Both the position numbers and the translations under genes were made by a program. A DNA stretch of 64,000 nt. Source: an uncultured Clostridia bacterium (GTDB lineage: Bacteria > Bacillota > Clostridia > Christensenellales > UBA1242). The stretch lies in NCBI GenBank assembly GCA_944345705.1, contig CALVML010000001.1, positions 34,871-98,870 on the forward strand, read 5' to 3'. Below are positions 13,162-41,031 of the stretch, one piece after another (the first letter of the stretch is position 1; the number at the start of each line of letters is the position of its first letter). The notes beneath the pieces are model-generated. The model saw nothing but the letters and a program-made list of their open reading frames with translations. It was not told where the DNA came from and made no database searches.

Positions 13162-13170
13162 GAGAAAGTT

Positions 13171-13665
13171 ATGAAAATTTTGATTTTAGTTTTACTCTTT
13201 CTTGTAAGTGTATATATTGGTTATCTTTTTTCTCGAAAATATAAAACGCGAGATAATTTTTTCAAAGCAATCATTTATCTATGTCAAAAGTTTGATATTG
13301 AAATAAACTATTCTCGCCAAAAAATGAAATCTATTTTTGATTCAATTGATGAAAAATATAAAAAAGATTTAAAAGGACTAGATAAAAATTTTCTGGCATT
13401 TGTGGATAAAGAAATGTCACTAGATAAAGAAAGTTTATTTAAAAATATCGGCTTCTTAAAAGAAGAGGAGAAAGATATCATATTTAATTTTTTTAAGTCG
13501 CTTGGACGCAGTGATGTAGAGAGTCAATCTAAAGAAATCAAAAACTTTTTAAATAGATTTGAAGATTTTAGTTTAAAGGCTTCGCAAGAGCAAAAGAAAT
13601 ATGGCTCGTTATCAATAAAACTAGGAGTCGCTTTTGGACTTATGGTGATAGTACTTTTCATATAA
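13171..13665 (+). CDS. spoIIIAB: Stage III sporulation protein AB
   Basis: N- and C-terminal TM, LGRSD.ESQ motif, operon order. Confidence 0.9.
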   Translation: MKILILVLLFLVSVYIGYLFSRKYKTRDNFFKAIIYLCQKFDIEINYSRQKMKSIFDSIDEKYKKDLKGLDKNFLAFVDKEMSLDKESLFKNIGFLKEEEKDIIFNFFKSLGRSDVESQSKEIKNFLNRFEDFSLKASQEQKKYGSLSIKLGVAFGLMVIVLFI

Positions 13666-13678
13666 AAGGTGAGTGATT

Positions 13679-13873
13679 ATGGATGTAGATATTATCTTTA
13701 AGATTGCCGCTATTGGCATTTTGACCGCAATTATTGGACAGGTTTTAAAACAAACAGGAAAAGATGAAATTTCAACACTTGCAACACTTGCAGGTCTAAT
13801 AATTGTGCTTATTATGGTGCTAAATCTTATTGCAGATTTATTCACTTCATTAAAGACAATTTTTAATTTTTAA
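13679..13873 (+). CDS. spoIIIAC: Stage III sporulation protein AC
   Basis: MDVDIIFKIAAIGIL..LATLAGLII. Confidence 0.95.
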   Translation: MDVDIIFKIAAIGILTAIIGQVLKQTGKDEISTLATLAGLIIVLIMVLNLIADLFTSLKTIFNF

Positions 13874-13886
13874 ATTTTGAGGTGTC

Positions 13887-14276
13887 ATGGATATTATATT
13901 CAAAATAATAGCAATTGGGCTTATAACATGTGTCGCCACACTTATTGTAAGGCCTGTGCGAGCCGATTTTGCAATTATAATAAGCATTGTTGGTGGACTT
14001 ATAATCATCTTTTTGATTATAAATTATCTCACCGGCATTTTTGATATTATTAATCAAATTTTAGGCATTAGTGGTATTAACTCTGGTCTTTATACAGTAC
14101 TTTTGAAGATTATTGGCATTGGTTATCTAATAGAGTTTACAGCGAGCATTTGTGCAGATACTGGCAATTCAAGTTTGGGTGACAAGGTTCTTCTTGGCGG
14201 GAAAATAATAATTATGGTTATGGCACTTCCTATCATTACCACTATCTTAGATATTATTATGGAGCTTTTGCCATGA
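13887..14276 (+). CDS. spoIIIAD: Stage III sporulation protein AD
   Basis: LLKIIGIGYLIEFTASICADTG..KV.LGGK. Confidence 0.95.
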   Translation: MDIIFKIIAIGLITCVATLIVRPVRADFAIIISIVGGLIIIFLIINYLTGIFDIINQILGISGINSGLYTVLLKIIGIGYLIEFTASICADTGNSSLGDKVLLGGKIIIMVMALPIITTILDIIMELLP

Positions 14277-15505
14277 GAAAATTAAGAGTAGATAAGCGAA
14301 GATATATTTTAATAATGCTAATTATATTTCTGGCAATACTTGCAATATTTTTCCCGTCAATTAAACATATAACAAACGCAGAAAATGTCGCCGAAGATGA
14401 ACTTTCGCAGGAAGAAATTTTACAGGAAATTGAAGATGAACTGGGAAATCAACTCGATAATCTAGATATGTCATCAATTGAAAATTTGCTTGATAGTTTA
14501 ACGGATGAAGAACTTGCACTCTTTGGCAAAAAAGGGTTTTTAGATAAAATTACAAGTCTGTTATCTGGCGAAATATCTCAAGGATCAAGTCTTTGGACAA
14601 GTATTTTAGAAATCTTTTTTGATAGTCTTTTGGAAATTATACCGTTTATTTCAATCATAATTGCTGTCGCACTTTTAGGCAATTTAATACAAGGGCTTAA
14701 GCCAACAAAAGGCGAAAAGAGTATATCAAATTTGATACATTTTGTGACTTATGGAATAATCGTTGTAATCGTCTTATCCATTGTCGTCAAAATGATTACT
14801 ATGACTACAAATACAATCTTCACTTTAAAAAATCAAATGGATGCCATTTTTCCACTATTACTAACTTTACTGACTGCAGTAGGTGGTACAGTTTCAGTGA
14901 GTGTTTATCAGCCAGCTATGGCATTACTGTCAAGCGTCATAATCAATCTATTTACTTATGTTCTTATGCCACTCTTTATATTCTCAATTATTTTCAGTGT
15001 AGTATCTAATCTTTCAAATACTATAAAACTTGATAAATTTACATCATTTTTTAATAGTACATTCAAATGGATAACAGGTTTAATTTTCACGATATTCACT
15101 GCATTTCTATCTATACAAGGTATAACTGCAGGCTCGATAGACGGAATTTCAATCAAAACCGCAAAATATGCGATAAAATCTTATGTTCCAATCTTAGGCT
15201 CTTATATAAGTGACGGTATGGGTGTAATTTTGGCTTCATCAAATCTAATTAAAAACGCGGTCGGTGCAAGTGGCTTATTTTTACTTTTAGCAAGTATTAT
15301 CACACCGATCTTGCAACTAGTATTATTCATGTTGGCACTAAAACTTGTCAGTGCCATCATAGAGCCTTTAGGTAGTAAACAAATTGCAAATTTTGTATCT
15401 TCTCTTTCAAAAAACATGACTTTATTAATTGTAACTATTGTAGGCATAGCCTTTGCAAGTTTTATAACAATTGGACTTGTAATGTGCAGTGCAAATATCT
15501 TCTAG
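14273..15505 (+). CDS. spoIIIAE: Stage III sporulation protein AE
   Basis: DGISIKTAKY..VPILG..IKNAVG motif. Confidence 0.95.
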   Translation: MRKLRVDKRRYILIMLIIFLAILAIFFPSIKHITNAENVAEDELSQEEILQEIEDELGNQLDNLDMSSIENLLDSLTDEELALFGKKGFLDKITSLLSGEISQGSSLWTSILEIFFDSLLEIIPFISIIIAVALLGNLIQGLKPTKGEKSISNLIHFVTYGIIVVIVLSIVVKMITMTTNTIFTLKNQMDAIFPLLLTLLTAVGGTVSVSVYQPAMALLSSVIINLFTYVLMPLFIFSIIFSVVSNLSNTIKLDKFTSFFNSTFKWITGLIFTIFTAFLSIQGITAGSIDGISIKTAKYAIKSYVPILGSYISDGMGVILASSNLIKNAVGASGLFLLLASIITPILQLVLFMLALKLVSAIIEPLGSKQIANFVSSLSKNMTLLIVTIVGIAFASFITIGLVMCSANIF

Positions 15506-15516
15506 GAGGCGAAAGT

Positions 15517-16017
15517 ATGCTTTCGGAATTATCAAATTGGATACTTTCAATAGCAGGAATAATTTGTGTTTCAGTCATTGTCGAACTTATTTTGCCTGAT
15601 GGACAAATGAATAGATATATAAAGGGAATATTTTCATTTATCATTATTTTGGTAGTTATTATGCCTATACCAAAATTGTTAAATAGAGATTTTGACTTTT
15701 CTAATATATTCGATAATAGTGGATATGAAATAGACAGTGATTACCTCTATCAAGTCAATCTTGACAAGATGAATAGTGTGAAAAATGAGATTGAAAAACA
15801 GATTGAAAAAAGAGGCTATCTTAATGTTGTGGTATCTATAAATTGTGACATTTTTGATAACAGTATGCAATATAAATCTATTTTTGTCGATTTATCTGAT
15901 TTAGTCATATCTGGACAAGCGGAGCATAACAATATATCGAAGATTAAGAAGGATATATCAAGCATTATTATGGCAATTATTGATATAGACGAGGAGGCAA
16001 TCTTATATGACGGATAG
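15517..16017 (+). CDS. spoIIIAF: Stage III sporulation protein AF
   Basis: W..SI......ELILPDG.M.RYIK; SD GGAGG before ATG 15517. Confidence 0.9.
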   Translation: MLSELSNWILSIAGIICVSVIVELILPDGQMNRYIKGIFSFIIILVVIMPIPKLLNRDFDFSNIFDNSGYEIDSDYLYQVNLDKMNSVKNEIEKQIEKRGYLNVVVSINCDIFDNSMQYKSIFVDLSDLVISGQAEHNNISKIKKDISSIIMAIIDIDEEAILYDG

Positions 16018-25743: not shown

Positions 25744-26787
25744 ATGAATAAAAATAATATAGACTTAATGAAAAAAAGCAGTTACTATTACGATTTGCCA
25801 CAAGAGTTAATTGCACAGACGCCAATAGAACCTAGAGATCAATCGCGTCTATTAGTTTATAATAGACAAACAAAAAAGATAGAACATAAAATTTTTAAAG
25901 ATATAATTGATTATCTCAAAGCAGGTGATGTACTTGTTGTCAATAATACAAAAGTTTTGCCGGCAAGATTATATGGCTACAAAGATACAGGAGCAAAAAT
26001 AGAAGTTCTTTTACAAAAAAGACTTGACTTATATACTTGGGAAGCTATTTCGAAACCTTTTAAAAGACTAAAGATTGGTACTATTTTAACATTTAGTAAA
26101 AATCTTTCATGTGAAATTATAGAAAAAGGGAAATACGGGCTTTGCAAAATCAAATTTATTTTTGAAGGTGTATTTGAGGAAAGATTGTCCGAGGTAGGTC
26201 AAATTCCATTGCCTCCATATATCCATGAAAAACTTCAAAACAAAGATAGATATCAAACAGTATATTCAAAAGTAGAAGGTTCGTCTGCCGCTCCAACAGC
26301 TGGTTTACATTTTACAAAAGAACTTTTGCAAAGAATAAAAGAAAAGGGGATTGAAATAGTCGAAGTTTTACTTCATGTAGGACTTGGAACATTTAAACCT
26401 GTTAAAGAAGAAAATATTTTAGATCATCAAATGCACAGTGAATATATTGAAATGTCGCAAGAGAACGCTGATATTATAAATAAGGCAAAACAAGAAAACA
26501 GGAGAGTGATAGCTGTAGGAACAACAAGTGTCCGAGTACTTGAAAGCTGTGCTGATGAAAATGGTAAAATTCATGCAATAAAAAAAGATACAGATATATT
26601 TATCTATCCTTCATATAAATTTAAAGTTGTTGACGGACTTATTACAAACTTCCATCTTCCTGAAAGTACACTTATCATGCTTGTATCGGCATTTGCTGGT
26701 TTTGACGAAACAATGCAAATCTATAACGAGGCAGTAAAATCTCAATATCGATTTTTCTCATTTGGAGATGCTATGTTCATAATATAG
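25744..26787 (+). CDS. queA: S-adenosylmethionine:tRNA ribosyltransferase-isomerase
   Basis: [29 protein letters not shown]. Confidence 0.98.
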
Positions 26788-26909
26788 TAGGTTATATGCA
26801 CATATAACATACTATATATAGTATAATCATAGTATTTCATATAAATTATTATAAAAAATTTCCATAAAGAAAACTCATTTGAGTATAATTTTAAATTTCA
26901 AATTTTTAA

Positions 26910-28058
<1,149 letters not shown>

Positions 28059-28590
28059 AAAAATTAAAAAAAGTGAATAATTATATCAAACCTGCACAAC
28101 ATAATAGCGTGAAGGAGATATGCTTCACATTATAGAAGGAAGTCAAGAATATTTGGGATATCAAATAATTTTGGCTTCTTTTTATTTTATGCAAACATTA
28201 AAGTGTAGATAAATTATAAAAATGCAATAGACTTGCATTCGAATTTCTCGATTTCCCTTAAAATCGTAGTTTTTTTGAATAAAGAAAAAAACAAGGATCA
28301 ATGTCTAAGTTATTTTAACATCTTGACAAATCGCGATCCTTAATATAACATAGTAGAAAATTATTTACAATTTTTCTGTCGTATTTATCAGTCTATAATT
28401 TTTATGATTTCCAAATTCTATATTTTCATTAGGCTAACCGTGGATAGATAGCATGATTTCGCACAACAGCATTGAACTTAAACACCATAATCTCAATTAA
28501 TAAATCTTTCTCACTTTCTTATATGATTGTTATTTAATATTGATTTATCTATTTTAATTTTTAAAACAATCTTATAAACATTTATAAAGA

Positions 28591-29631
28591 CTAATTTTCA
28601 GAATTTAGTTTTACTTTATCTGCAACACTTTTTCTCATGTCTTCGCTGATGGCAGCGTAGTGTTTCTTGGTCGTATTTACATCCTTATGACCTAATACAT
28701 CCGCTACAATATAAATATCACGCGTTTCTTTATATAAATTTGTGCCGAAAGTACTTCTTAATTTATGCGGCGATATTTTTTTAAGAGGAGATGCAATTTG
28801 TGCAAATTTTTTCACTAAGTTTTCTACAGCACGGATAGAAATTCGTTTATTTTGAAGGGATATAAACATTGCCTTTTCTTCTTTTGGCAACTCAAGAGTT
28901 GCGCGTTTTTCAAGCCATGTTTTTAGTGCCATAGCAACTTCATTAGAAAAATACAACATTGTTTGATTTCCACCTTTTCTTGTAACTAAAAAGGCATTTT
29001 GTGTAAAATCAAAATTCTCAATATTTAAACCAACAAGTTCTGAAATTCTTATGCCTGTACCTAAAAATAATGTTATGATAGCATTATCTCGTTCGAAGGT
29101 ATTTTTATTGTACTCTCTTTGTCTATCTGTAAATTCTGTAGGGGATTCAACGGCATTTAAAAGCCTTGATACTTCATCTTTTTCAAGTCTTATAATTTCC
29201 TTATTATGCAATTTAGGAGTGTCGATTTTACTTGCAACATTTGCTTCAATCATATCATGATTAAAAAGATACTTGAAAAAACTGCGCAAAGAAGCAAGTT
29301 TTCGAGCCTTTCCTTTTTCATCATTTTTATATTGTTTATCGTTTAACTGATAAAACGATAAATAAGATAGATATTGTTCTAGGTTTCTAGATTTAATTTT
29401 GTTTATATCCTCCAAAGTAATTTCACTTTCTTTCTTATGAAATACAAATCTTGATAAATAATTAAAAAAAACATATAAATCCATGGCGTAATTATATCGC
29501 GTTAAAGAAGATGTATTATTTTCAATACCTATAAAATAGTCGAGGCAAAAGTCGGGGAGTTGTTCTAGATATTTCGACATTTTTAATCTATTGCTTAGAT
29601 CTCTTTTTTGATAAAAACTTGTTTTTTCCAT
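28591..29631 (-). CDS. Tyrosine recombinase, XerS-like single Xer
   Basis: Catalytic R (GIRISEL), K (VTRKGG), HxxR (SPHKLR), LGH, Y (KHY); 346 aa; next to the strand switch; no mobile cargo. Confidence 0.85.
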   Translation of the reverse strand: MEKTSFYQKRDLSNRLKMSKYLEQLPDFCLDYFIGIENNTSSLTRYNYAMDLYVFFNYLSRFVFHKKESEITLEDINKIKSRNLEQYLSYLSFYQLNDKQYKNDEKGKARKLASLRSFFKYLFNHDMIEANVASKIDTPKLHNKEIIRLEKDEVSRLLNAVESPTEFTDRQREYNKNTFERDNAIITLFLGTGIRISELVGLNIENFDFTQNAFLVTRKGGNQTMLYFSNEVAMALKTWLEKRATLELPKEEKAMFISLQNKRISIRAVENLVKKFAQIASPLKKISPHKLRSTFGTNLYKETRDIYIVADVLGHKDVNTTKKHYAAISEDMRKSVADKVKLNSEN

Positions 29632-29677
29632 ATTGTTATAATAGCATATTTTTCTAAAAAATCAAACAAATTTCAAT

Positions 29678-29691
29678 ATCTATGCGTAAAA
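29678..29691. promoter_or_regulatory. dif half-site in the xer promoter region
   Basis: ATCTATGCGTAAAA is identical to 14 bp of the left arm of the palindrome at 32515-32548. Confidence 0.65.
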
Positions 29692-29954
29692 TACTATGAT
29701 TTTTTAAGTTGTTCTTGATTTAATCATAAAATACTGTCAAAAATATAAATGAGATTTTATAACTGGCAAAATAATATAATATCTTCTTTTATTAAAACAA
29801 AAAAAGTATTTTATTTAATTGAAAAAATTGACTTAATAGAAAAATAACATTATAATTAAAATGAACAGGATATATTCTATTATTTTAATATAAAAGAGGG
29901 GTTTGTAATTATAATAAATATTTCCTAATGCAAATACGAATAAAAGGAGCTAAA

Positions 29955-31244
29955 ATGATCGACATAAATTTAATTAGAAATAATCCAGAATTAGTAAAAG
30001 AAAATATAAAAAAGAAATGTCAAGATGAAAAATTACCTGTGGTTGATGAAGTAATTGATTTCGATAAAAAAGCAAGGACTTTGCAACAAGAAGGTGATGA
30101 TCTTCGTGCTAAACGCAATAGTTATTCAAGTCAAATCGGCGCTATGATGCGTGAAAAACAAATTGACAAAGCAAACGAATTAAAGAACATTGTTAAAGCA
30201 AATAACGAAAGGATAGAAAATATAGATTTACAATTGCAGGAATTAAATAAGGAGATTAAATCTATTATGATGAAAATTCCAAATATTATTGCTGACGATG
30301 TTCCTGTAGGCAAAGATGATAGCGAAAATGTAGAATTAGAAAAATTTGGCGATCCAATTGTACCTGACTATGAAATTCCATATCATGCTGATATTCTTGA
30401 AAGTATCAACGGGTTAGACAAAGAAAGTGCTGGCAGAACAAGTGGCACAGGTTTCTATTACCTAATGGGCGATGCAGCAAGATTACATGAGGCTATGATT
30501 GCTTATGGACGCGATTATATGATTGACCAAGGATTTACTTATTGTATTCCGCCTTTTATGATTAGAAGTGATGTTGTAAATGGCGTTATGAGTTTCGCCG
30601 AAATGGAAGCCATGATGTATAAGATTGAAAATGAAGATCTATTCCTAGTTGGAACAAGCGAACATAGTATGATAGGCAAATTTAAAGGACAAATTATAAG
30701 CGAACAAGATCTGCCAATTAAAATGACATCTTATTCTCCATGTTTTAGAAAGGAAGGCGGTGCGCATGGGCTTGAAGAACGCGGATTATATAGAGTTCAT
30801 CAATTTGAGAAACAAGAAATGATTGTAATATGCAAGCCAGAAGATAGCATGGATTACTATAATAAGATGTGGAAATATACAGTAGATATCTTCCGCAATC
30901 TTGAAATACCTGTTCGAACACTTGAATGCTGTAGCGGAGATTTAGCAGATTTAAAAGTAAAAAGTTGCGATGTTGAAGCTTGGAGCCCAAGACAGAAAAA
31001 ATATTTTGAAGTAGGTTCTTGCTCAACACTCGGCGATGCTCAAGCTAGAAGATTAGGAATAAGAGCAAAAGGTGAAAAAGGAACATACTTCTTGCATACT
31101 TTAAACAATACCGTTCTTGCTTCTCCAAGAGCGCTGATAGCATTTTTAGAAAATAATCTACAAGCAGATGGAAGCATAAAAATACCAGCAGTTTTACAGC
31201 CTTATATGGGCGGTAAGACATCAATAATACCAAAACAAAAATAA
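29955..31244 (+). CDS. serS: Serine--tRNA ligase
   Basis: MIDINLIR, GTSEH, FRKEGG, RVHQFEKQE, HTLNNT; SD AGGAG before ATG 29955. Confidence 0.97.
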   Translation: MIDINLIRNNPELVKENIKKKCQDEKLPVVDEVIDFDKKARTLQQEGDDLRAKRNSYSSQIGAMMREKQIDKANELKNIVKANNERIENIDLQLQELNKEIKSIMMKIPNIIADDVPVGKDDSENVELEKFGDPIVPDYEIPYHADILESINGLDKESAGRTSGTGFYYLMGDAARLHEAMIAYGRDYMIDQGFTYCIPPFMIRSDVVNGVMSFAEMEAMMYKIENEDLFLVGTSEHSMIGKFKGQIISEQDLPIKMTSYSPCFRKEGGAHGLEERGLYRVHQFEKQEMIVICKPEDSMDYYNKMWKYTVDIFRNLEIPVRTLECCSGDLADLKVKSCDVEAWSPRQKKYFEVGSCSTLGDAQARRLGIRAKGEKGTYFLHTLNNTVLASPRALIAFLENNLQADGSIKIPAVLQPYMGGKTSIIPKQK

Positions 31245-31340
31245 GTTTTTATTAGATATCTAAATTATTTATTATAATTGTATTAAATTCACTAATGTGA
31301 ATACTTAAATAAACAATCTTTCTTTAAAAAAAGGAAAAAT

Positions 31341-32330
31341 ATGGGTAAATTATTAATTAATAAGGAATTGATCACAAATGTTGCAAATCTCGAGAATAGA
31401 AAATTTATCAAACAAACCAACAAAATAGTGAATAATTTAGTTGGATTTACTGTTAAACACTTACAAGACAAACTATCTTTTATATCACCCGAAAATGTTA
31501 TTTTGCAACCGGCAAATGAACTTCTGACTGGAGCTATTGTAGATAGCTCTGATTTTACCTATATTCTAGGCGTTAATAGTCCGCAACTTGAAATGAACAC
31601 CTTAAAAGGTAAATCTTTTTGGGAAAATTTTAAAGAAAAACTAAAATATGCTTGGCAAAATCGAAAATCAATTTTTAATAGAAGGAATCGTAAAAAACGC
31701 CGAAAAAAGAAGAAAAACAATGATTTGGAAATTGAAAAATCGAATAATAAGCCAGTAGTATTAGAAAAATATAAAATTTATAATTTATTAGATGACATAC
31801 AAAACAGTATCGTGCTGTTTTTGTCAGAAACAAGTTTGACTTATCTTTATGATAACCGAATAGAAATAATAGGAAAAGATGATTTTGGAGCTAATACCAG
31901 AATAAAAATCTATCCAATGATATTTGATGGTAAAAACTATAAATATTATATAGATAAAAAACAAGGATTTTTGAAAATAGATATTGATAATCGAATAAAT
32001 AAAGTTCAAGAGAAAATCAATAATGTTGGCAATAACTTTTTTAAGATACTAAAAATTTTGAATTATCTTTTCTACAACACAAACAATTATAATTGTAATC
32101 AAATTTTCTTAGAAAGTGTAATATGCTCAGTTCCAGACAAGATGTTTCAAGGTGATGATATTTATAATGTGTTTGTTAAAATAATTAATTATTTATCAAT
32201 TAATTCTTTGAATGTAATTTCTATTAATAATCCAAAACTTACTATATATAAAGATATTGCATGTCAAAATTCAGTAATAGGTTTTCGTAAAATGATTAAC
32301 TCAATTGTAAATGAAACAAAATCAATATAA
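31341..32330 (+). CDS. CdnE/CD-NTase-fold protein with degenerate active site and K/R-rich insertion
   Basis: VILQ......T.....SD and FLES....VPD..F.G.....F..IINYL segments resemble clade-E CD-NTases (comparison from memory); GS and DxD not conserved. Confidence 0.55.
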   Translation: MGKLLINKELITNVANLENRKFIKQTNKIVNNLVGFTVKHLQDKLSFISPENVILQPANELLTGAIVDSSDFTYILGVNSPQLEMNTLKGKSFWENFKEKLKYAWQNRKSIFNRRNRKKRRKKKKNNDLEIEKSNNKPVVLEKYKIYNLLDDIQNSIVLFLSETSLTYLYDNRIEIIGKDDFGANTRIKIYPMIFDGKNYKYYIDKKQGFLKIDIDNRINKVQEKINNVGNNFFKILKILNYLFYNTNNYNCNQIFLESVICSVPDKMFQGDDIYNVFVKIINYLSINSLNVISINNPKLTIYKDIACQNSVIGFRKMINSIVNETKSI

Positions 32331-32514
32331 ATATAAAATCAATTATAATAAGTATTATTAATTATAAATAAAAAATGCACATATAAGCATATTTTGAAAT
32401 CAAGAAATAAGAATGAATTTTGTACCAAAACTAAAGATCTAAAATTAATATAAGAAAAATTAAAGTTATAAAAAAATAACATAATAGTTTTAAAAATAAT
32501 GCTAGTATGCGGTC

Positions 32515-32548
32515 ATCTATGCGTAAAACTTGTGTTTTACGCATAGAT
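32515..32548. other. Putative chromosome dimer resolution site (dif; difSL/difH-like)
   Basis: Perfect inverted repeat ATCTATGCGTAAAA-CTTGTG-TTTTACGCATAGAT at the gene-strand switch, 2.9 kb from the XerS-like gene. Confidence 0.75.
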
Positions 32549-32834
32549 AATAAAGTTTTGCATACTAGTGTTTTTTTACTCCCTATCAAAAATATCCTAT
32601 AATTATCACTCATAAAAGTCTTAAAATATCATTAAAAATTTCTGGACGTTCCACTCTAACCTTATTATACGTTTTAAATTTTCTGTTTTGCACTTTCATA
32701 TTTAATATATTGATATGGGTTTATTCCTTTTATATCACCTATTATTTGCTATAAAACATATTTTTTAACCTTTATTTTTTTTGTTATGACTAGTATGCAA
32801 TGCATAATAGTTTATATAAATATTTAAAAATATG

Positions 32835-32863
32835 TTGACTATTAAATTTTCTTGTTCTATAAT
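32835..32863 (+). promoter_or_regulatory. SigA-type promoter of the padR-like gene
   Basis: TTGACT-17 bp-TATAAT. Confidence 0.7.
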
Positions 32864-33035
32864 ACTTTTAGATAATAAAAAAAAATGAGTTATACCCTAC
32901 TCAATTAGTGTTATCCTGTAAAACTTAAAGTTTATTTTTTATAATAACAAAAAGTTTTATTGAGTCGATGTAATATGAAACAAACATATAAACTTAACAA
33001 CTCAACTAAAAGTTAAAAGTGATAAGGAAAAAACT

Positions 33036-35318
33036 ATGGATTTATATGCAAAAGGACAACTTTCATTTATGATATTAACTTGCTTACTTGAGCGAGATTT
33101 TTATGGTCTTGATATTATAAGTGAAATCAATAAAAAAAGCGATGGCAAGATAACTTTAAAGAAGCCTAGTGTATACTCAAATTTGACTAGAATGGAAAAA
33201 CAAGGTTATGTTTCTTCATATCTTCAAGACAGTGAATTAGGACCTAACCGAAAATATTATTCAATTACAGAAAAAGGTAGAATTTTCTATAATGATTTAA
33301 AAGATTATTATGATCGAAATAATATTGACGTATTTAGAGATTTTAAAGACGAGTCAAGTATGGAAAAGAATATACAAATCAATTCTAATCTTGATCCTAA
33401 CCTGCTTTCAAAGGTTAATACTCAAATTGTAGAATCTTATACTGCCACTTCTGCATCTAGACAATTGTCTATAAACGAAATTGAAAATGATTCTAATTCT
33501 TTAAATCAAGATATAACTAATATTTCAAAAACAAATACTGTTCAAAATGAAGATATTATAGTCAATAAATATAGCCAAGATATAGAAGAAGAAATCGAAG
33601 AAACTAATGACGTAGATGAAGATCTTGACTCATATTTTGATTTTTCTGATTTTTCAGAAGATAAAAAAGAGTCTAAAGAATCATTGCAAACAACTAAAAA
33701 TCTCAAAGAATCTATCGATAGTCAGCAATCACAATCCACTTATGAAAATGAAAACAACTACGACGATTTCGAAATTGAAAATAAAACACAGATTAAGCAA
33801 GAACCAGTTGCTAATGAAGAAATTGTAGAAGAAACTACAATATTAAATGAAGAATTATCTTCTACTCAAAATGATAATGAACCTACTCCAAAGTACGAGA
33901 GTGAAAATTATATATCAAACTCACCTACTCAGAATGATGATGTAACTTATAGAAGTGAACAAAATATAGAAGAAGTCACCAAAGTTGAAAATGAAAATAA
34001 TTCAATAAATTCAGTTGATAACAATATAAGTATTAATATCACTGAATCAGTAAATAATGATGATATTTCCAAATATTCATATAATCAAGCTAATCTAGAA
34101 CCAAACTCTCAGATTAATACTGTCGATGATAATAAAGAGAATAAAATACATAATAATGAAATAACAAACAAAGATGATAATGCTCAAAAAGATGATGGCG
34201 TTTTCTTGTCTAATAAAGATGTAGAAGATTATAATAGACGAATTTATGATATTTCTAAGGATATAAACAAGTATAAACGCAAACGCAGTTTCGCTGAAGA
34301 TCAAATATCAATTACGGCAACTGATCCTCTCTATGTATCTAATGAAAGAACAAAGAATAATATTGAAGAATTTAAAAATTCAATTCTCCAAAACAAGTCA
34401 AAATATACCGAAGAAAAACAGACCTTATATGACTTATTCCATCACAAGAGAGAAGAAACGGAAAGAAATGAGCAGTTGCAATCTAACTCAAAACAAGATG
34501 ATGGCAAATTCATTACAGAGCGAGTTGATTTCAATCTTACTAAGTTAGATAAACAAGAAACTACTGTTCAGCAAAGTGAAGAACATTTTCAAGATGATGG
34601 TAAGTTTATAACTAATAGGATAGATGCAGGCAAACTTGAATCTGCTAAAAAAATTGAACCGCCTAGACTCAAAATTGCTGAATCTACTCCTGTTAAAATA
34701 AATCAGATGCCACCGCCAAAGCGAGATAAATCAATTGATCCATCACATAAAGATATATTAACAAGACTTTATTCTAAAACAAAAACAGCTCAAGATGCCG
34801 AGCTTAGAGAAGATGCTCTCTATGATTATAATGACTTAAAAACTTTTTACAATAAACAAAATATATCATTTAATGAGTATAAAAAACCGGCAGAAAAAGC
34901 TGAGCATAATACAAATAAATTAATGTTAATGCTGTCATCTGCAATATTTGTTCTCGCAACTACCCTATCGGTAATATTGTATGTAATATGTCTTAGATAT
35001 GGACTATTAAATCCAAATACAAACTTCCTATTTGTGTTATTACCAGCATTATTCTTGATCGATGTTGCTCTAAAAGGATATAATTTTTATCGATATCGAA
35101 GTTGGCTTCCAGCTAAAATGATGCCACAATGGCAAATTTGGATATATACAATTCTTGCAATTGGTATTGTCATAGGATTAAACTTTATATTTGGTTTAAC
35201 TCCAAACAATTTTGCTCAATTTGCAACAACATTAATATTGCCTATGCTTATGATTTTGGCTATTTTGCCTATTAGGTATTATACAAAGAGATTTATGCTT
35301 ATAAAATTTTGGAAATGA
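33036..35318 (+). CDS. PadR-type wHTH + long low-complexity linker + C-terminal 4-TM protein
   Basis: N-terminal YG.DII..I......LK.PSVYS.L.RMEK.GYV..RKYYSITEKGR; ~500 aa N/E/D/S-rich middle; four hydrophobic helices at the C-terminus. Confidence 0.8.
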   Translation: MDLYAKGQLSFMILTCLLERDFYGLDIISEINKKSDGKITLKKPSVYSNLTRMEKQGYVSSYLQDSELGPNRKYYSITEKGRIFYNDLKDYYDRNNIDVFRDFKDESSMEKNIQINSNLDPNLLSKVNTQIVESYTATSASRQLSINEIENDSNSLNQDITNISKTNTVQNEDIIVNKYSQDIEEEIEETNDVDEDLDSYFDFSDFSEDKKESKESLQTTKNLKESIDSQQSQSTYENENNYDDFEIENKTQIKQEPVANEEIVEETTILNEELSSTQNDNEPTPKYESENYISNSPTQNDDVTYRSEQNIEEVTKVENENNSINSVDNNISINITESVNNDDISKYSYNQANLEPNSQINTVDDNKENKIHNNEITNKDDNAQKDDGVFLSNKDVEDYNRRIYDISKDINKYKRKRSFAEDQISITATDPLYVSNERTKNNIEEFKNSILQNKSKYTEEKQTLYDLFHHKREETERNEQLQSNSKQDDGKFITERVDFNLTKLDKQETTVQQSEEHFQDDGKFITNRIDAGKLESAKKIEPPRLKIAESTPVKINQMPPPKRDKSIDPSHKDILTRLYSKTKTAQDAELREDALYDYNDLKTFYNKQNISFNEYKKPAEKAEHNTNKLMLMLSSAIFVLATTLSVILYVICLRYGLLNPNTNFLFVLLPALFLIDVALKGYNFYRYRSWLPAKMMPQWQIWIYTILAIGIVIGLNFIFGLTPNNFAQFATTLILPMLMILAILPIRYYTKRFMLIKFWK

Positions 35319-35325
35319 GAGATTA

Positions 35326-35376
35326 AAAAAAAGACTTATATTGAAACTTTTATAGTTTAGTATAAGTCTTTTTTTA
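35326..35376. terminator. Bidirectional terminator between convergent genes
   Basis: A-run AGACTTATA...TATAAGTCT T-run. Confidence 0.75.
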
Positions 35377-35378
35377 CT

Positions 35379-36035
35379 TTAATTCTTTTTAATATTTTTT
35401 TCTTTTTTATCTTTTCGTTTCTCTTTGAGTTCCTTAAAAATAGTTATAAATAGATCTGTAAAAAGGAAAAGTAAAATAATGATAAGAGATATTATTAAAA
35501 TATATGTTATAGAATTTGAAAATACTTCGCAAATTAATGTGATCATTCCAGCTGAAATCATCGCACCTATTACTATTGACAGGAAACCATATCTAATATC
35601 CAAATTACTAAGCCCAACAATCAAGCTCCCCGTCCAAACACCTGTTAATGGAAGCGGAACAGCAACAAAACCTGTTAGCATAAAGTACTTAGTAAAATTA
35701 TTCTTGGCTTGAGTAACCGCACGGCTTTTATTGTAATATTTTTGAAGAAATTTATTTGTCATAAAGCCAGCCATTTTGCTTTTCAATTTTCTCACTATCA
35801 AAATTATAATAAAGGACGGCAAGAGAGAACCTAAAAAAGCAAATAGAAAAGATTCAAAACCTGTTAAAGCACCTGCTCCCCATATTTCAGTATTCATTCC
35901 AAACGGAATTGCAATCTTACTTTCTATAGTAGGAATCATTGCCATGAGCATGACAGCAAGCCAAACGCAATCTTGAAAGTTTACACTTATTAAATCTAAA
36001 AAGTTATCCATATTATATTTTATTAAATTATTCAT
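35379..36035 (-). CDS. COG2426 / small multidrug-export family membrane protein
   Basis: P.IESKIAIP.G and FVAVPLPLTGVWTG motifs. Confidence 0.85.
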   Translation of the reverse strand: MNNLIKYNMDNFLDLISVNFQDCVWLAVMLMAMIPTIESKIAIPFGMNTEIWGAGALTGFESFLFAFLGSLLPSFIIILIVRKLKSKMAGFMTNKFLQKYYNKSRAVTQAKNNFTKYFMLTGFVAVPLPLTGVWTGSLIVGLSNLDIRYGFLSIVIGAMISAGMITLICEVFSNSITYILIISLIIILLFLFTDLFITIFKELKEKRKDKKEKNIKKN

Positions 36036-36117
36036 ACAATATGATAAGTTTTTCGTAAAACAATAGTAAAAATAGCCATCGCTAAATAGATAGAATTTGT
36101 TTTTTTAATACATTAAA

Positions 36118-36152
36118 CAAAAAGATCGCATTAGAGTTAAATGCGATCTTTT
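36118..36152 (-). terminator. Terminator after rny
   Basis: AAAAAGATCGCATT...AATGCGATCTTTTT. Confidence 0.75.
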
Positions 36153-36182
36153 TATATTTCTCTTGTAGATAAAATTTTTAAT

Positions 36183-37772
36183 TTATTTTGCTGTTTCGGT
36201 AAAGCGATTTTCGCGAATTACAACTACTTTGATTTGTCCCGGATATTGCATCTCATCTTCTATGCGTTTTGTAATATCTTTGACAAGATACATTGCATCT
36301 GTATCGCTTATTTGATCAGGTTTTACAATAATTCTAACCTCTCTTCCAGCTTGAATTGCATAAGATTTCTCTACGCCTTTGAAATCATTACATATACCTT
36401 CTAGTTGTTGCAATCGTTTAATATAGTTTTCAAAACTCTCTCTTCTTGCACCAGGTCTAGTACTTGAAATCGCGTCAGCAACTTGTACAATTACTGCTTC
36501 AATACAAGCAAATGGAACATCACCGTGATGAGCCTGTATACAATTTATAACTAGATCAGATTCTTTATTTTTTCTTGCAAGATCAACACCGATAGAAACA
36601 TGAGTTCCTTCTACTTCATGGTCAAGAGCTTTACCAATATCATGTAAAAGTCCGCCACGCTTAGCAAGCATTACATCTGCATTTAATTCAGTAGCAATCA
36701 ATCCCGCAATTATAGATGTTTCAACGCTATGTTTCAAGCAGTTTTGTCCATAGCTTGTCCTAAATTTGAGTCTGCCAAGTACCTTGACAAGTTCTGGTGC
36801 AAGATTGTAAATTCCTGCATCATTGCAAGCATTCTCACCTGCTTCTTTGATTGTTTTGTCGACTTCTCGAGTGGCCTTTTCAACAATTTCTTCAATTCTT
36901 CCCGGATGAATTCTACCATCAATTATAAGTTTTTCCAAACTTAATCTTGCAATTTCTCTTCTAACAGGATCAAAACTTGAAACGGTGATTGATTCTGGTG
37001 TATCATCTACAATGAGTTCGACTCCTGTGGCACTTTCAATTGAGCGAATATTTCTTCCCTCACGACCAATAATTCGTCCTTTCATCTCGTCATTAGGCAA
37101 GGCGACTGTTGTTACAGTCATCTCACTTGATAAATCAGTTGCACACCTTTGAATTGCTGACATAACAATGTCTTGAGCGATTTTCTCTCCATTCTCACGT
37201 GCTTCATCTTCAATCTTTTTGACAATGTTGCCCGCGTCTTTTTTAGCTTCTTCTGTAATACTATCAATAAGCAAATCTTTAGCTTGATTTTTAGTGAGTC
37301 CAGAAAGGCTTTCTAACTTTTCAAGCATTTGGTTTTTGATTTCATTTTGTTCTGAAATCTTATCATTCAAAGTTTTCTTGTCATTTTCAAGTTGCACTTT
37401 TTCATTTTCTAGTTGTTCACTTTTTGCGTCAAGTGCAGTTTCTTTTTTTGTGACATATTCTTCACGCTGATCAAGTCTTTCCTCTTGTTTTTGTATTTCT
37501 GCGCGTCTTTCCCTTGCCTCGTTATTGGCCTCATCTCTAATTTTTTGAGCCTCTTCCTTGGCTTCTAACATTGATTCTTTTTTTATGCTCTTTGCTTCTG
37601 CATACGCCTCTTCAATGATTTTTACAGCATTAGTTTTGCTTTTACCAATCTTCTTGTTTGCGACTATTTTATAAATTATAGCTCCGACTACTAAACCTAC
37701 TAATAGGGCAAGTACTCCGCTTACAACTCCGGCATTTACAGCAGCATTGCATAATATGCTTAAACTGCTCAT
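36183..37772 (-). CDS. rny: Ribonuclease Y
   Basis: N-terminal TM, coiled coil, KGRIIGREGRNIR KH domain, LLHDIGK HD domain. Confidence 0.98.
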   Translation of the reverse strand: MSSLSILCNAAVNAGVVSGVLALLVGLVVGAIIYKIVANKKIGKSKTNAVKIIEEAYAEAKSIKKESMLEAKEEAQKIRDEANNEARERRAEIQKQEERLDQREEYVTKKETALDAKSEQLENEKVQLENDKKTLNDKISEQNEIKNQMLEKLESLSGLTKNQAKDLLIDSITEEAKKDAGNIVKKIEDEARENGEKIAQDIVMSAIQRCATDLSSEMTVTTVALPNDEMKGRIIGREGRNIRSIESATGVELIVDDTPESITVSSFDPVRREIARLSLEKLIIDGRIHPGRIEEIVEKATREVDKTIKEAGENACNDAGIYNLAPELVKVLGRLKFRTSYGQNCLKHSVETSIIAGLIATELNADVMLAKRGGLLHDIGKALDHEVEGTHVSIGVDLARKNKESDLVINCIQAHHGDVPFACIEAVIVQVADAISSTRPGARRESFENYIKRLQQLEGICNDFKGVEKSYAIQAGREVRIIVKPDQISDTDAMYLVKDITKRIEDEMQYPGQIKVVVIRENRFTETAK

Positions 37773-38017
37773 AATTTCCCCTTTTTAAGATAGATCTAAA
37801 ATTCTATCAAATCTATTATACTATATTTATAAATATAAAGTCAAACGATTTAGAAAGCAGAAAGTAAATTTTGTAAAAATAGAACAAAATGCGAACTGTT
37901 TGATTTGCTCAAGCTCATTGCTATTATATATACTCATAAACTTTTGGCATATAAATTTGTCTTTAGATAATGAAAAAAGCACCATTTGTAAATTAAATAT
38001 AATGGTGCAAAAATTAT

Positions 38018-39262
38018 TTATTCTAATTCATTCAACTGCTCAAGCATAAAGTCTGTATATATTCCATAACCCTTGCTTGAATCATTTAAAAATACATGAG
38101 TAACCGCTCCAATAATTTTACCGTCTTGCACGATCGGACTACCGCTCATTCCTTGAACAATACCCCCAGTAAGTGCAATAAGCCTTTTGTCTTTAACTCT
38201 AAATACCATACTCTTGTCACTCGATTTGCTTTGGAAGTTTGCTTTAATAATCTCTATATCATATTCTTCTCTTATTCCGCTTACAGCACTGATTATTTTT
38301 GCACTGCCCGGACGAACGCTTAACCTTCCACCCAATTTATAACTTAAATTTTGATCGATAATAGATGCATTTTCACTTAATTTACCAAATATGCCAAACT
38401 TGGTATTTTTATCTATTGAGCCAATATCGTTACGTTGAACAAAAACGCATTTTAATTCGCCAGGATCATTTTCTCGACCTTTATTTATCCCTACTAATGA
38501 GCAATTATAAATTTTCCCATCTTTTATTTCTAGAGAATTTTCACTTTTTCCGTTTGTTACAGGATGTCCTAAAGCACCATATCCATAATCGCTTTTGCGA
38601 ACAAAAGTCAATGTTCCTATACCAGAAATATCATCTTTTACCCATATACCGAGTTTGACTTTCCCATCTTTATCCTTTAACAAAGGAAGATTAAAACTTT
38701 TAATTATACCATTTCGCTCTATTTCGACACAAGTTTTTTCGTTATTTACTTTTTCTAAGACATTTGAAATGTCATTAATATCATTAATCTCCTGCCCGTC
38801 AATCTTTTTTATTACATCACCATTTTTTAAATAACTATTTTGCGAAACCTTCATATTCTCAACATCAACAGAAGATGCACTTATAACCATAGCACCATCC
38901 AGATAAACTGTCAGTCCTATAGGTACACCACCAGCATAAACTTCCTCTTCAGGAAGAATTTTCATTGTTACTTTCTTAATTGGAATAAAGCCAAAAAGTT
39001 TAAATATGACTTCGCTTTCGCTGTCTCCATTTTTCCCTGTCTTAACATCGTTTTTATTGAAATCTAACGAAACGAAATTGCCAAATAAATTATCATTTTT
39101 AGCACTTTCCACTTCTTCAAAACTAGAATATATTGACGAAGGCAACTGATAAAGTTTTACAAAATCAATATTATAAGCAAAATAGGATAAGACCAAAAGA
39201 AAAAAATAAACAAACAAAATTATCTTTTTATTTTTCGTTAAGTTTGACTTGTTCTTTTTCAC
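38018..39262 (-). CDS. spoIVB: SpoIVB peptidase S55
   Basis: GIGTLTF, ALGH, TGGIVQGMSGSPIVQDGK.IGAVTHV. Confidence 0.96.
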   Translation of the reverse strand: MKKNKSNLTKNKKIILFVYFFLLVLSYFAYNIDFVKLYQLPSSIYSSFEEVESAKNDNLFGNFVSLDFNKNDVKTGKNGDSESEVIFKLFGFIPIKKVTMKILPEEEVYAGGVPIGLTVYLDGAMVISASSVDVENMKVSQNSYLKNGDVIKKIDGQEINDINDISNVLEKVNNEKTCVEIERNGIIKSFNLPLLKDKDGKVKLGIWVKDDISGIGTLTFVRKSDYGYGALGHPVTNGKSENSLEIKDGKIYNCSLVGINKGRENDPGELKCVFVQRNDIGSIDKNTKFGIFGKLSENASIIDQNLSYKLGGRLSVRPGSAKIISAVSGIREEYDIEIIKANFQSKSSDKSMVFRVKDKRLIALTGGIVQGMSGSPIVQDGKIIGAVTHVFLNDSSKGYGIYTDFMLEQLNELE

Positions 39263-39366
39263 TTATCCCTCCAATTATATAAAAGTTTACATAATCTTGT
39301 ACACAAAAAAACTAACCCTAAAGGTTAGTCTATACTAAATATTTAAAATTATACTACACTAAATAT

Positions 39367-41031
39367 TTATTGATGAATTAAATAATTTTTATCTCTCATT
39401 TCCTGTGCATGCGATAAGGCAATGTTTGAAACCTGTCCACTTATCATCTTTGCAAGATTATAGACAATTTCATCACCTTCCAAATGTTTTACATGAGTAA
39501 ATGTCTGTCCATCGCTTTCACTTTTTGAAACAAAATAGAAATCATCTCCAAAACTTGCAACTTGTGGCAAATGTGTAATGCATATAATTTGAGCATGTTT
39601 TTTTATACTAGACAATTTCTCGCCTACAATAACTCCTGTTTCACCACTGATACCAGCATCTATTTCATCAAAAATAAGCGTTTCTACACTTTCATTTTCG
39701 GAGAAAATATTTTTGAAAGCAAGCATAAATCTGCTTAATTCACCGCCTGACGCCGTCTTCGCAAGGGACTTGCTTTGCTGACCAAGATTGGCAGAAAAAA
39801 CAAACTCAACTTTATCTATTCCGTTTGACGAGATCTCGATTTCATCAAAATTGATATTGAAAATGCTAGATTTCATGCCAAGTGCAGATAGTTCTTGCTT
39901 AATTTTATTTTCAATTATAAGTGCTATTTTCTTTCTTGTGGCAGATAAGTCTTTTGCAGTTTTGAGCAACTTATCATATAACTCCTTTTTCTCTTTTTGA
40001 TACTTTTCAATCAAAAAGTCACTATCTTCAAGTTCATTTAATCTTGCCTTGGCTTTTGATAAAAATTCTTGTACTTTTTGATAAGTGCCACCATACTTTT
40101 TAAATATATTCTTTATTGTGTCATATCTTAAATCAAGTTGTTCATACTCACGCTCATCAAACTCAGTATTACTTTTTATATCAGCTAGCGTTTCATATAT
40201 ATCTTCTATTTCATATTTTGCGCTTTCTAATCTTTGATGACAAGAGGCAATACTATCAAAATTTGATACCGATGCAAGCGAAGAAATAGCATAATCAAGA
40301 TTATTTAAACATGAATCGCCATTGTCACTTAACAAACTTTGACAAGATGATATTGCATTAAAGATCTTTTCACTGCTATTCATTAAATCTAGACGCTCTT
40401 TAACTTGAGTATCTTCATCTTCTTTGATATCTGCCTGCTCAATCTCAGTGATTTGATAATTTAAAAGCGATTTCTCGTGCTCTCTTTCAAACTTGTCACC
40501 ACCAAGCGAGTTTATCTTTTTGATTACATCGTTGTAATTAGCATATTCAACTTTTAAATTTTCTTTGATAGGAGCAATTGTATCGTTGTCATATCGATCA
40601 AGCAGCTGTAAATGATTTTTTGAGTTCAATAGTTCTATACTCTCGTGCTGAGAATAACTATCAAGAAGTGCGCTTCCCACCTGCTTTAATAGTGATTGCG
40701 TGGCAATTTGACCATTTATTCTAATAGCAGATTTGCCATCAAGATTTAATGTTCTTGAAATTAATATCTCCTCATCATCAAAGCCAAGAGATTGCATGAA
40801 GGCTTTTGCCTGAGAATTGATATTAGTAAATAGCGCCTCTACTCTCATTTCTGTTTCATTTGATCGCAAAAGAGTTTTATCTGGTTTTGCTCCAAGTGCA
40901 AAATTTAAAGAATCAAAAATAATACTCTTACCAGCACCTGTTTCACCAAGCAAAATATTTAATCCACTGCCAAAATCAATTGACAATGATTTTATAAGCG
41001 CAACATTTTTTATGTTTAAAGTTTGAAGCAT
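39367..41031 (-). CDS. recN: DNA repair protein RecN
   Basis: GETGAGKS, ASGGELSR, FDEIDAGISG, CITHLPQVA. Confidence 0.97.
   Translation of the reverse strand: MLQTLNIKNVALIKSLSIDFGSGLNILLGETGAGKSIIFDSLNFALGAKPDKTLLRSNETEMRVEALFTNINSQAKAFMQSLGFDDEEILISRTLNLDGKSAIRINGQIATQSLLKQVGSALLDSYSQHESIELLNSKNHLQLLDRYDNDTIAPIKENLKVEYANYNDVIKKINSLGGDKFEREHEKSLLNYQITEIEQADIKEDEDTQVKERLDLMNSSEKIFNAISSCQSLLSDNGDSCLNNLDYAISSLASVSNFDSIASCHQRLESAKYEIEDIYETLADIKSNTEFDEREYEQLDLRYDTIKNIFKKYGGTYQKVQEFLSKAKARLNELEDSDFLIEKYQKEKKELYDKLLKTAKDLSATRKKIALIIENKIKQELSALGMKSSIFNINFDEIEISSNGIDKVEFVFSANLGQQSKSLAKTASGGELSRFMLAFKNIFSENESVETLIFDEIDAGISGETGVIVGEKLSSIKKHAQIICITHLPQVASFGDDFYFVSKSESDGQTFTHVKHLEGDEIVYNLAKMISGQVSNIALSHAQEMRDKNYLIHQ

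Follow-up and report, generated by a model that had tools for sequence, protein, structure and literature searches.

What does a protein with the fold of a CBASS (anti-phage signalling system based on cyclic oligonucleotides) cyclase do in a chromosome where it has neither an effector beside it nor the residues of a cyclase? We addressed this question for gene X, which encodes a protein of 329 amino acids (aa) in a stretch of 64,000 nucleotides (hereafter the window) from an uncultured Clostridia bacterium (GenBank assembly GCA_944345705.1, contig CALVML010000001.1). A previous reading of the DNA letters without database searches (the sequence-only reading) had described X as an orphan, apparently inactive CdnE-like protein next to dif. 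Bacterial CD-NTases are known as the signal-making enzymes of CBASS anti-phage defence, and eukaryotes are known to have catalytically dead members of the fold that took on new jobs in the cell (MiD49/51, NF45/NF90, Utp22, MAB21).

We find that X is homologous to clade-E CD-NTases, retaining their fold and the motif of their C-terminal helical domain, and that it is a single-copy chromosomal gene inherited vertically in one family of small-genome gut Clostridia. We lean, at slightly better than even confidence, towards the joint reading that X has its origin in a clade-E CD-NTase (the CBASS cyclase of anti-phage defence), is an enzyme no longer, and is now a domesticated, non-catalytic pseudoenzyme that binds nucleic acid.

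Fold and homology of X

31341..32330, + strand: gene X, CdnE-like CD-NTase-fold pseudoenzyme of 329 aa (open reading frame list, AlphaFold2 model, profiles, dN/dS)
32097..32138, + strand: C-lobe CD_NTase_C motif N253-D266 (NQIFLESVICSVPD), equivalent to RmCdnE PSYFLECLLYNVPD

The open reading frame (ORF) was recovered at exactly the coordinates given before, with an AAAGGA ribosome-binding site ahead of its ATG, and its translation contains both peptides that had been quoted, within residues 51-80 (ENVILQPANELLTGAIVDSSDFTYILGVNS) and 255-285 (IFLESVICSVPDKMFQGDDIYNVFVKIINYL). Searched as a single sequence, X gave no match in Pfam (E <= 1), PADLOC (E <= 10) or NCBIfam, and ten X homologues searched against a local copy of Pfam gave chance-level matches and nothing more. 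Relatives of X numbered 55 at E <= 0.01 in a collection of 5.8 billion proteins, nearly all of them 310-330 aa long and unnamed, and 97 of 1.84 billion cluster representatives matched X at E <= 0.001. No longer or fused form was found among 3787 candidates, which is weak evidence, and none of the 82 pattern matches obtained on viral contigs with the profile A1 encoded a relative. A1 is a 30-sequence alignment of the near family of X; the second profile used throughout, A2, is a 72-sequence family profile that includes distant members.

An AlphaFold2 model of X built from A1 (mean predicted local distance difference test, pLDDT, 85.6; predicted template-modelling score, pTM, 0.77) predicts a bilobal Pol-beta-like nucleotidyltransferase (NTase) core followed by a C-terminal helical domain. 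A Foldseek search of the PDB with this model placed CdnE structures in all of the first 13 positions (top LpCdnE 7x4t, E 6.6e-09), with CdnC, MiD51, cGAS and DncV ranking after them. Using VIA-align, which is independent of Foldseek, against 48,161 representative chains, we obtained ClCdnE 7x4g (Z 19.8, 258 residues, rmsd 3.6), EmCdnE 6e0m (Z 19.7) and RmCdnE 6e0l (Z 19.6) as the top matches, other bacterial CD-NTases at Z 15-19 and eukaryotic NTase-fold proteins at Z 12-14.

The sequence-only reading had pointed to a likeness between X and segments of clade-E enzymes, and this likeness exceeded chance. Profile A1 reached RmCdnE at no better than E 0.042, precisely on the segment pointed to, and the significant PDB matches of profile A2 were four, all CdnE (RmCdnE 6e0k, E 1.9e-12; EmCdnE 6e0m, 6.2e-10; LpCdnE 7x4f, 3.8e-07; ClCdnE 7x4a, 1.1e-05). 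Aligned with hhalign to two canonical Clostridia CBASS cyclases, A2 gave a probability of 94% (E 1.3e-07). PF26305, named CD_NTase_C in the ESM Atlas, was precomputed on 5 of the 55 homologues, and the nearest ESM Atlas clusters to X carry CD_NTase_C (Pfam 38.1) on 41% and 15% of their members. Matches to the Pol-beta/CD-NTase fold, whose absence would have spoken against the sequence-only reading, were therefore obtained, and the assignment of a CdnE-like, cGAS/DncV-type fold stands.

X thus shares with CdnE (RmCdnE 6e0k/6e0l, EmCdnE 6e0m-o, LpCdnE 7x4f/q/t, ClCdnE 7x4a/g) the same two-lobed fold over 249-258 aligned residues, a similar length (~300 aa), sequence homology over the C-terminal two thirds (E 1.9e-12) and the C-lobe motif F-[LI]-E-x-[LIV]-[LI]-x-x-x-P-[DN]. 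Within this motif E258, S259 and P265 are near-invariant, and the S-Y of the CdnE SYxLE is Q-I in X. Unlike CdnE, X has no G[GS], no catalytic triad and no effector gene, and it carries a polybasic insertion of ~50 aa after strand beta2.

Loss of the active site

31515..31520, + strand: N59-E60, at the G-[GS] phosphate-loop position (weak N-terminal alignment to LpCdnE, QGS against A58-N59-E60)
31548..31559, + strand: S70-D71-F72-T73, at the S-D-h-D that holds the first two catalytic acids on strand beta2 (alignment to LpCdnE SDVD)
31905..31907, + strand: K189, at the third catalytic Asp position on the D-h-h-P strand (three of four HMMER alignments, and hhalign)

X reads Q56-P57-A58-N59-E60 at the phosphate loop, with no G[GS] in any register of QPANEL. 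The sequence-only reading had equated GS with P57-A58; the loss of GS holds, and the register lies two residues off, since distant members that read GD at positions 59-60, together with the register of the HMM, favour N59-E60. Its other two assignments were borne out: the second Asp of DxD is T73 in the alignment to LpCdnE, and K189 (in T186-R187-I188-K189-I190-Y191-P192) lies opposite the third catalytic Asp in the HMMER alignments to EmCdnE, LpCdnE and ClCdnE, as it does in hhalign alignments to canonical cyclases (KDTDSVP).

The loss extends to the whole family. Acids occur at position 71 in 30-31% of members, at position 73 in 3% of A1 (near) and 59% of A2 (broad), and at position 189 in 5-6%, the last having N in 31 of 72. 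All three acids occur together in none of the 72 members, two in seven, one in 56 and none in nine, and a conserved acid on strand beta2 or on the third-Asp strand was found in no register of A1 or A2. G[GS] is kept in one member of 72, whereas position 60, equivalent to the Ser of G-S, carries an acid in 100% of A1 and 94% of A2, and an acid there would disfavour triphosphate binding. Some distant members read GD, DxD and N, which resembles an early stage of decay. As a control, the PADLOC Cyclase model matched two canonical cyclases, from loci L073 and L074, at E 1e-100 and 1e-109, and X matched none of PADLOC Cyclase, SMODS and NTP_transf_2. Judged by its sequence, X lacks the three acids that would bind metal, so that no intact catalytic triad is left, as well as a phosphate loop with G-[GS]; because these defining catalytic features were searched for and not found, we treat it as a non-catalytic CD-NTase variant and not as a member of the enzyme family, in agreement with the inactivity proposed before.

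A polybasic insertion kept across the family

31611..31766, + strand: ~50-aa insertion, residues 91-142, after beta2 (alignments, AlphaFold2 secondary structure and pLDDT)

Between V78 at the end of beta2 and K142, where the next helix begins, X has 64 residues, against ~15 in LpCdnE, as expected from the ~50-aa insertion noticed earlier. The model folds it into two predicted helices (93-106 and 108-125) followed by a low-confidence or disordered linker (127-136), and its polybasic run, RRNRKKRRKKKK, covers residues 114-125 (R114-K125, nucleotides 31680-31715). The insertion is not present in the CdnE chains of the A2 HMMER alignments. In the family, the region 91-142 has a median length of 47 aa; its Lys and Arg residues number 18 of 47 at the median in A1 and 16 of 45 in A2, with a minimum of 12 across the 72 members, and its best 12-residue window holds a median of 10 Lys or Arg in A1 and 9 in A2. 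That the basic patch survives at 20-25% overall identity argues that it is selected and not an artefact of slippage. X as a whole has a pI of 9.59, and the median of the A1 family is 9.25.

Distribution, inheritance and selection

Profile A2 matched 85 of the 151 sampled genomes of the window's GTDB family (76 of 130 among those at least 90% complete), in 34 of 58 genera, and within most genera the presence of X was close to all-or-none. The X-bearing genomes of the family all measure 0.7-1.4 Mb. In a class-wide sample, 9 of 399 genomes matched A2: seven belong to the window's family and the other two carry the canonical cyclases of L073 and L074, which as weak out-of-family matches show that the canonical CBASS state is recognised by these searches. 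The X family is thus nearly confined to a single GTDB family. Each matching genome has one X ORF, with no internal stops. Gut metagenome-assembled genomes labelled uncultured Clostridia, Christensenella-like or "Candidatus Caccovivens" are the source of the named loci.

We compared 68 X loci, of which 55 form a main group and 13 a second group (subgroup 2, X identity ~30-35%); counts of neighbours are restricted to main-group loci with enough flank (informative loci). Around X the window holds, in this order, queA, tgt, a Xer recombinase gene (-), serS (+), X (+), a 700-bp spacer, genes for a membrane protein with a PadR domain (+) and for an exporter-like protein, and then rny, spoIVB and recN. 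Comparing loci L001-L059 with window positions 25744-41031, we found the xer-serS-X-dif-padR block intact, with tgt/queA, rny, spoIVB and recN swapping sides and orientation.

Nei-Gojobori dN/dS values for X were 0.05-0.135 in 14 of 15 locus pairs, the remaining value (0.28) coming from a near-identical pair with few changes. In the same 15 pairs serS gave 0.016-0.095 and rny 0.008-0.044; X is therefore under clear purifying selection and evolves ~2-3 times faster than its housekeeping neighbours. Conserved synteny, single copy, vertical inheritance and these ratios together support the earlier proposal of domestication in core DNA.

The orphan status of X was confirmed both beside the gene and in the rest of the genome (1.28 Mb, 98.85% complete). 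None of the eight proteins neighbouring X is a CBASS effector, the sole PADLOC matches among them being weak Cas3 matches on RNase Y. No SMODS domain was found in the genome, and no Cap15 receptor by a search that detects Cap15 in both of two genomes known to carry it; a SAVED search of the genome gave no match, but neither did its controls. Unlike a CBASS CdnE, X lies in a vertically inherited core region and not in a defence island, whereas the cyclases of L073 and L074 adjoin BREX or relaxase genes.

These two loci, from other Clostridia, hold canonical type I CBASS operons (L073, 3540-5155; L074, 3752-5288), each with a cyclase and a Cap15 2TM effector. One operon adjoins an AAA_21 ATPase and the other adjoins BREX genes (PglZ, BrxL) and a MobA-type relaxase.

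A proposed non-catalytic nucleic-acid-binding protein

In the reading that we favour, X would act without catalysis by binding nucleic acid, either DNA or structured RNA, through the family-wide helical polybasic insertion and the basic body of the protein. It would retain the ligand-binding half of a cGAS/OAS/CdnE sensor, drop the signalling output, and work as an architectural or adaptor protein. Nucleic-acid binding is suggested by the conservation of the insertion and by analogy with those sensors. cGAS binds double-stranded DNA (dsDNA) and OAS1 double-stranded RNA, and a staphylococcal CdnE is reportedly linked to a structured RNA, cabRNA. DancE, a relative of the same fold, is described as binding dsDNA. 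Like cGAS and OAS1 (both Z 13.5) X has the common fold, and the basic nucleic-acid-binding surface that is theirs can be surmised for X from its insertion. In cGAS, DancE, CdnE-cabRNA and OAS1, however, binding leads to synthesis of a second messenger, of which X, going by its residues, should be incapable by the canonical mechanism. Binding of a cyclic nucleotide, the other ligand proposed by the sequence-only reading, is less likely than binding of nucleic acid because position 60 is acidic in 94-100% of members and the S-Y of the C lobe is Q-I.

X also resembles eukaryotic dead NTase-fold adaptors and scaffolds (NF90-NF45 4at7, Z 14.0; MiD49 4woy, 13.8; Utp22 4m5d, 13.8; MAB21L1 5eog, 11.3), although none of MiD49/MiD51, NF45-NF90, Utp22 and MAB21L1 has a specific sequence relationship to it. 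Since X is closer to bacterial CdnE than to these proteins, bacteria would here have taken the same evolutionary route independently. In the literature searched, subscription-only papers excepted, and in the SMODS passages of PMC7159879, we found no description of a bacterial non-catalytic CD-NTase family like X. The family would then be a bacterial counterpart of the eukaryotic dead NTase-fold proteins that carries a new polybasic module, kept for long under purifying selection in small genomes, where dispensable DNA rarely survives. Being compact, it would lend itself to studying what a cGAS-like sensor can do with its ligand-binding half once signalling is gone, and how defence genes become domesticated.

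Several observations weigh against this reading. Of the 151 family genomes searched, 66 lack X, and no remnant of it was found in the serS-dif or dif-xer gaps of three X-less genomes (hmmsearch --max, best E 2.5), so that it is dispensable in some relatives. The conserved E60 and D180/D181 could in principle form a remodelled site. Overall basic charge is not universal, net charge ranging from -3 to +20 and pI from 5.59 to 9.62 in the broad family, across which the patch alone is the constant part of the basic charge; and such a patch can equally bind acidic membranes or acidic proteins.

The dif-like site and a possible role at the terminus

32518..32545, no strand: dif-like site TATGCGTAAAA-CTTGTG-TTTTACGCATA, 28 bp with 11-bp inverted arms and a 6-bp spacer (blastn-short conservation, symmetry)
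32442..32517, no strand: conserved extension of ~60 bp on the X side of dif only, GTTAT-N6-ATAAC-ATAATAG ... GCTAKTATGC ... ATC (locus comparison)
28591..29631, - strand: Xer-type tyrosine recombinase (Pfam; NCBIfam XerS, E 9e-52)
29675..29695, no strand: copy resembling a dif half-site, ATCTATGCGTAAAA, between xer and serS (matched as a block in up to 17 loci)
33036..35318, + strand: PadR-domain protein, on the far side of dif from X (Pfam)

When the window's spacers were compared with all loci by blastn-short, a single block stood out (32442-32575); it is matched in up to 51 loci and contains a near-palindrome starting 188 bp past the last base of X; X is the last gene before it in the window. 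A site of this kind lies downstream of X in 55 of 68 loci, mostly at 60-450 bp from where the X match ends, in a few at up to ~1.5 kb and in L047 at 5.1 kb, and the pairing persists down to X identities of ~28%. Changes in one arm are mirrored in the other across the 55 loci (TATTCG...CGAATA, TCTGCG...CGCAGA, GCGCAAAA...TTTTGCGC). A degenerate dif pattern has one copy in the window's own genome and one in each of four subgroup-2 genomes, and none when reversed as a control. Cumulative GC skew has its peak at 32000-32499, shortly before a flip in gene orientation. The recombinase, 2.9 kb from the site, has XerS as its best model at 176 bits against a cut-off of 267, and lies below every curated cut-off; its gene is upstream of X in all 43 informative main-group loci (the Xer alignment excludes row L009, which has a stop codon inside its tblastn range). 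Arm symmetry, single copy, skew peak, orientation flip and the Xer gene support the placement of X next to dif made by the sequence-only reading, and the sequences at 32518-32545 together with the XerS-like gene fit a single-recombinase dif site. Like single-recombinase Xer systems (XerS/difSL, XerH/difH) and PepA at cer/psi, the locus has a xer gene near a near-palindromic dif and a conserved flank on one side.

This arrangement raises the prospect that X is a terminus-associated DNA-binding factor, either a partner of the XerS-like recombinase or a binder of the conserved sequences beside dif, which we consider unlikely. There are analogues for it: PepA is an enzyme-derived accessory protein at cer/psi, and tus and rtp are encoded beside their Ter sites. 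Besides the pairing with dif and xer described above, it is favoured by locus L067, where serS is absent and X is immediately flanked by xer on one side and the dif-like site on the other, and by the extension on the X side of dif, which was not seen in any of three X-less genomes. Those genomes are also more distant, with Xer identities of 52-56%, and the extension was not seen downstream of X in subgroup 2 either. In addition, a complex prediction from the Xer and X alignments scored 0.33 (0.33, 0.00 and 0.52 in separate runs; "weak support"), compared with 0.01 for the best of three controls, with a partner pLDDT of at least 73 and agreement between runs in at least 0% of contacts. Of 157 solved complexes 116 reach the mark applied to such predictions, as do 2 of 215 mismatched pairs; at scores of 0.60 or lower it is reached by only 18 of the 157 and by both passing mismatches. 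According to the prediction tool, scores of this kind mislead more often than not where the pairing was not already likely, and we take this one as a hint only.

The comparison of loci argues the other way. The 13 subgroup-2 loci all place X between gap and spoIIIA and contain neither a dif-like site nor xer, serS or a PadR gene, and in four of four such genomes the single dif-like site has no X, xer, serS or padR within 1.5 kb. Three X-less genomes of the same family keep xer-(serS)-dif-padR, with a spacer of 0.6-1.3 kb at the place expected for X; X is thus not required for Xer/dif, and differs in this from PepA at cer/psi. FtsK, the usual activator of Xer, is encoded in the window's genome. 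The side-swapping of outer genes is the pattern expected of repeated inversions centred on the terminus, and because nested inversions of this kind hold the innermost genes together without selection, the adjacency of X and dif may be neutral. A link between X, Xer and dif is accordingly possible but weak, and it is improbable that a catalysis-stripped cGAS-like sensor was recruited to chromosome biology here, with X binding dif-flanking DNA or the XerS-like recombinase and aiding dimer resolution or termination. Were it true, X would be a bacterial immune enzyme turned architectural DNA-binding protein, comparable to PepA at cer.

Other sequences around the site were noted in the same comparison. 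The half-site copy ATCTATGCGTAAAA in the xer-serS spacer may serve autoregulation. A sigma-70 promoter reading of the element upstream of dif was dropped, since the spacing of its candidate hexamers is poor. With 1.25 copies expected, the motif CTAKTATGC is present 7 times in the window, a count reached in none of 100 shuffles; four copies cluster at 32502-32510, 32560-32568 and 32790-32810, two of them bracketing dif as an inverted pair and two making up a complete palindrome, CTAGTATGCA-A-TGCATAATAG, which lies 25 bp upstream of a promoter-like site of the PadR gene (32835-32863). This palindrome is a candidate operator of the membrane-anchored PadR protein, which would then bind beside dif. 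In the tgt-xer spacer, positions 28092-28138 form a conserved noncoding block with a GC-rich hairpin (GTGAAGGAGATATGCTTCAC) that is found in up to 35 loci, where tgt is not always the neighbour, and has no Rfam match; it could be a terminator or a small RNA.

serS, transcription and possible RNA binding

29928..31244, + strand: serS, seryl-tRNA synthetase, directly upstream of X (Pfam)
29828..29856, + strand: best promoter-like site upstream of serS, TTGACT-17-TATAAT (11 of 12 matches)

About as unlikely as a role at dif is one in RNA binding linked to tRNA or translation, in which X might, for instance, bind tRNA or a structured RNA and be co-expressed with seryl-tRNA synthetase. The sequence-only reading had X following serS, and this order is seen in the window and, on the same strand and with a median HSP (high-scoring segment pair) gap of 35 bp (range 9-352), in 47 of 48 informative main-group loci, L067 with X divergent from xer being the only exception. 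The region is rich in tRNA-related genes (queA and tgt upstream, thiI and pheST downstream, mnmA in L067), the fold class counts RNA binders among its members (OAS1 4rwn, TUTases and the CCA-adding enzyme 4x4n, Z 11-14), and the closest relatives of X, the clade-E CD-NTases, reportedly include an RNA-activated enzyme.

Contigs from RNA libraries bridge serS and X. In three chicken-gut metatranscriptome runs of one study (X1-X3) they start at 29870-29901, just past the promoter-like site; in X1 and X2 a single contig spans serS, the 96-bp spacer and X as far as 32073 and 32136, and in X3 this stretch is split between two overlapping contigs that reach 32049. They differ from the window at 28-34 positions and leave 32137-32330 uncovered, and one run of a second study gave short RNA-library pieces on serS and X. 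These contigs, which lend weak support to the view that X is probably transcribed together with serS from ~29828-29856, were assembled and may contain DNA, and are no proof of transcription or of a single transcript, a further point against our favoured reading.

The association with serS does not hold throughout, as serS is not adjacent to X in L067 or in any of the 13 subgroup-2 loci, where gap lies directly upstream and the spoIIIA operon downstream; this suggests that X rides on strong housekeeping promoters. At Rfam gathering thresholds the window contains one tRNA only, with no T-box or other RNA element near serS or X.

Other possible roles for X

Slightly less likely again is a role for X as a protein-protein or membrane adaptor, in which the basic patch would bind acidic phospholipids or an acidic partner. 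The precedent is provided by MiD49 and MiD51, dead NTase-fold adaptors that were among the structural matches (MiD49 4woy, Z 13.8; MiD51, Foldseek E 2e-05). A candidate partner is encoded across dif by the PadR gene, which is downstream of X in 45 of 49 informative main-group loci: its product of 760 aa has an N-terminal PadR winged helix, an acidic, Asn/Ser-rich low-complexity linker of ~450 aa and, at the C-terminus, a membrane domain with several passes. X itself, however, shows no evident membrane anchor, hydrophobic or amphipathic, and the PadR neighbour is found in none of the 13 subgroup-2 loci.

We give somewhat less credence still to the idea that X binds or converts nucleotides at a remodelled site (E60, D180/D181 or D152), as a sensor or sponge of NTPs or cyclic nucleotides or as a non-canonical transferase. 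In its favour, E60 is acidic in 94-100% and D180/D181 in 81-100% of members, seven of the 72 hold two of the three acids, with several reading GD, DxD and N, and MiD51 binds ADP though inactive (title of PDB entry 4oag). Yet the full triad occurs in 0 and G[GS] in 1 of the 72, an acid at the phosphate-loop Ser position should repel a triphosphate, hhalign places D180/D181 at the N-S of a hairpin turn, ~6-7 residues before the catalytic Asp and off the catalytic strand, and no SMODS cyclase that could make a ligand was found in the genome. That X is a functionless, decaying CBASS relic, as its lost catalytic residues and effector and its absence from 66 of 151 family genomes might suggest, is very improbable given frames that are intact in every match, dN/dS values of 0.05-0.135, and retention down to ~20-30% identity with invariant motifs and the insertion.

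Sporulation genes in the window and beside X

Sporulation genes are kept in the 1.28-Mb genome of the window. In five subgroup-2 loci (L049, L054, L056, L057 and L060) a small conserved ORF lies ~60-130 bp downstream of X, before spoIIIAA; it is preceded by conserved sequence and an AGGAGG site, starts with MKE[LV].M[IV]VGFGAGL and has one predicted membrane helix and a Lys-rich tail. In the window itself a SpoIVB peptidase is encoded at 38018-39262, and the ORFs at 12256-16017 agree in their sizes and their order with the spoIIIAA-AF operon that was identified in L057.

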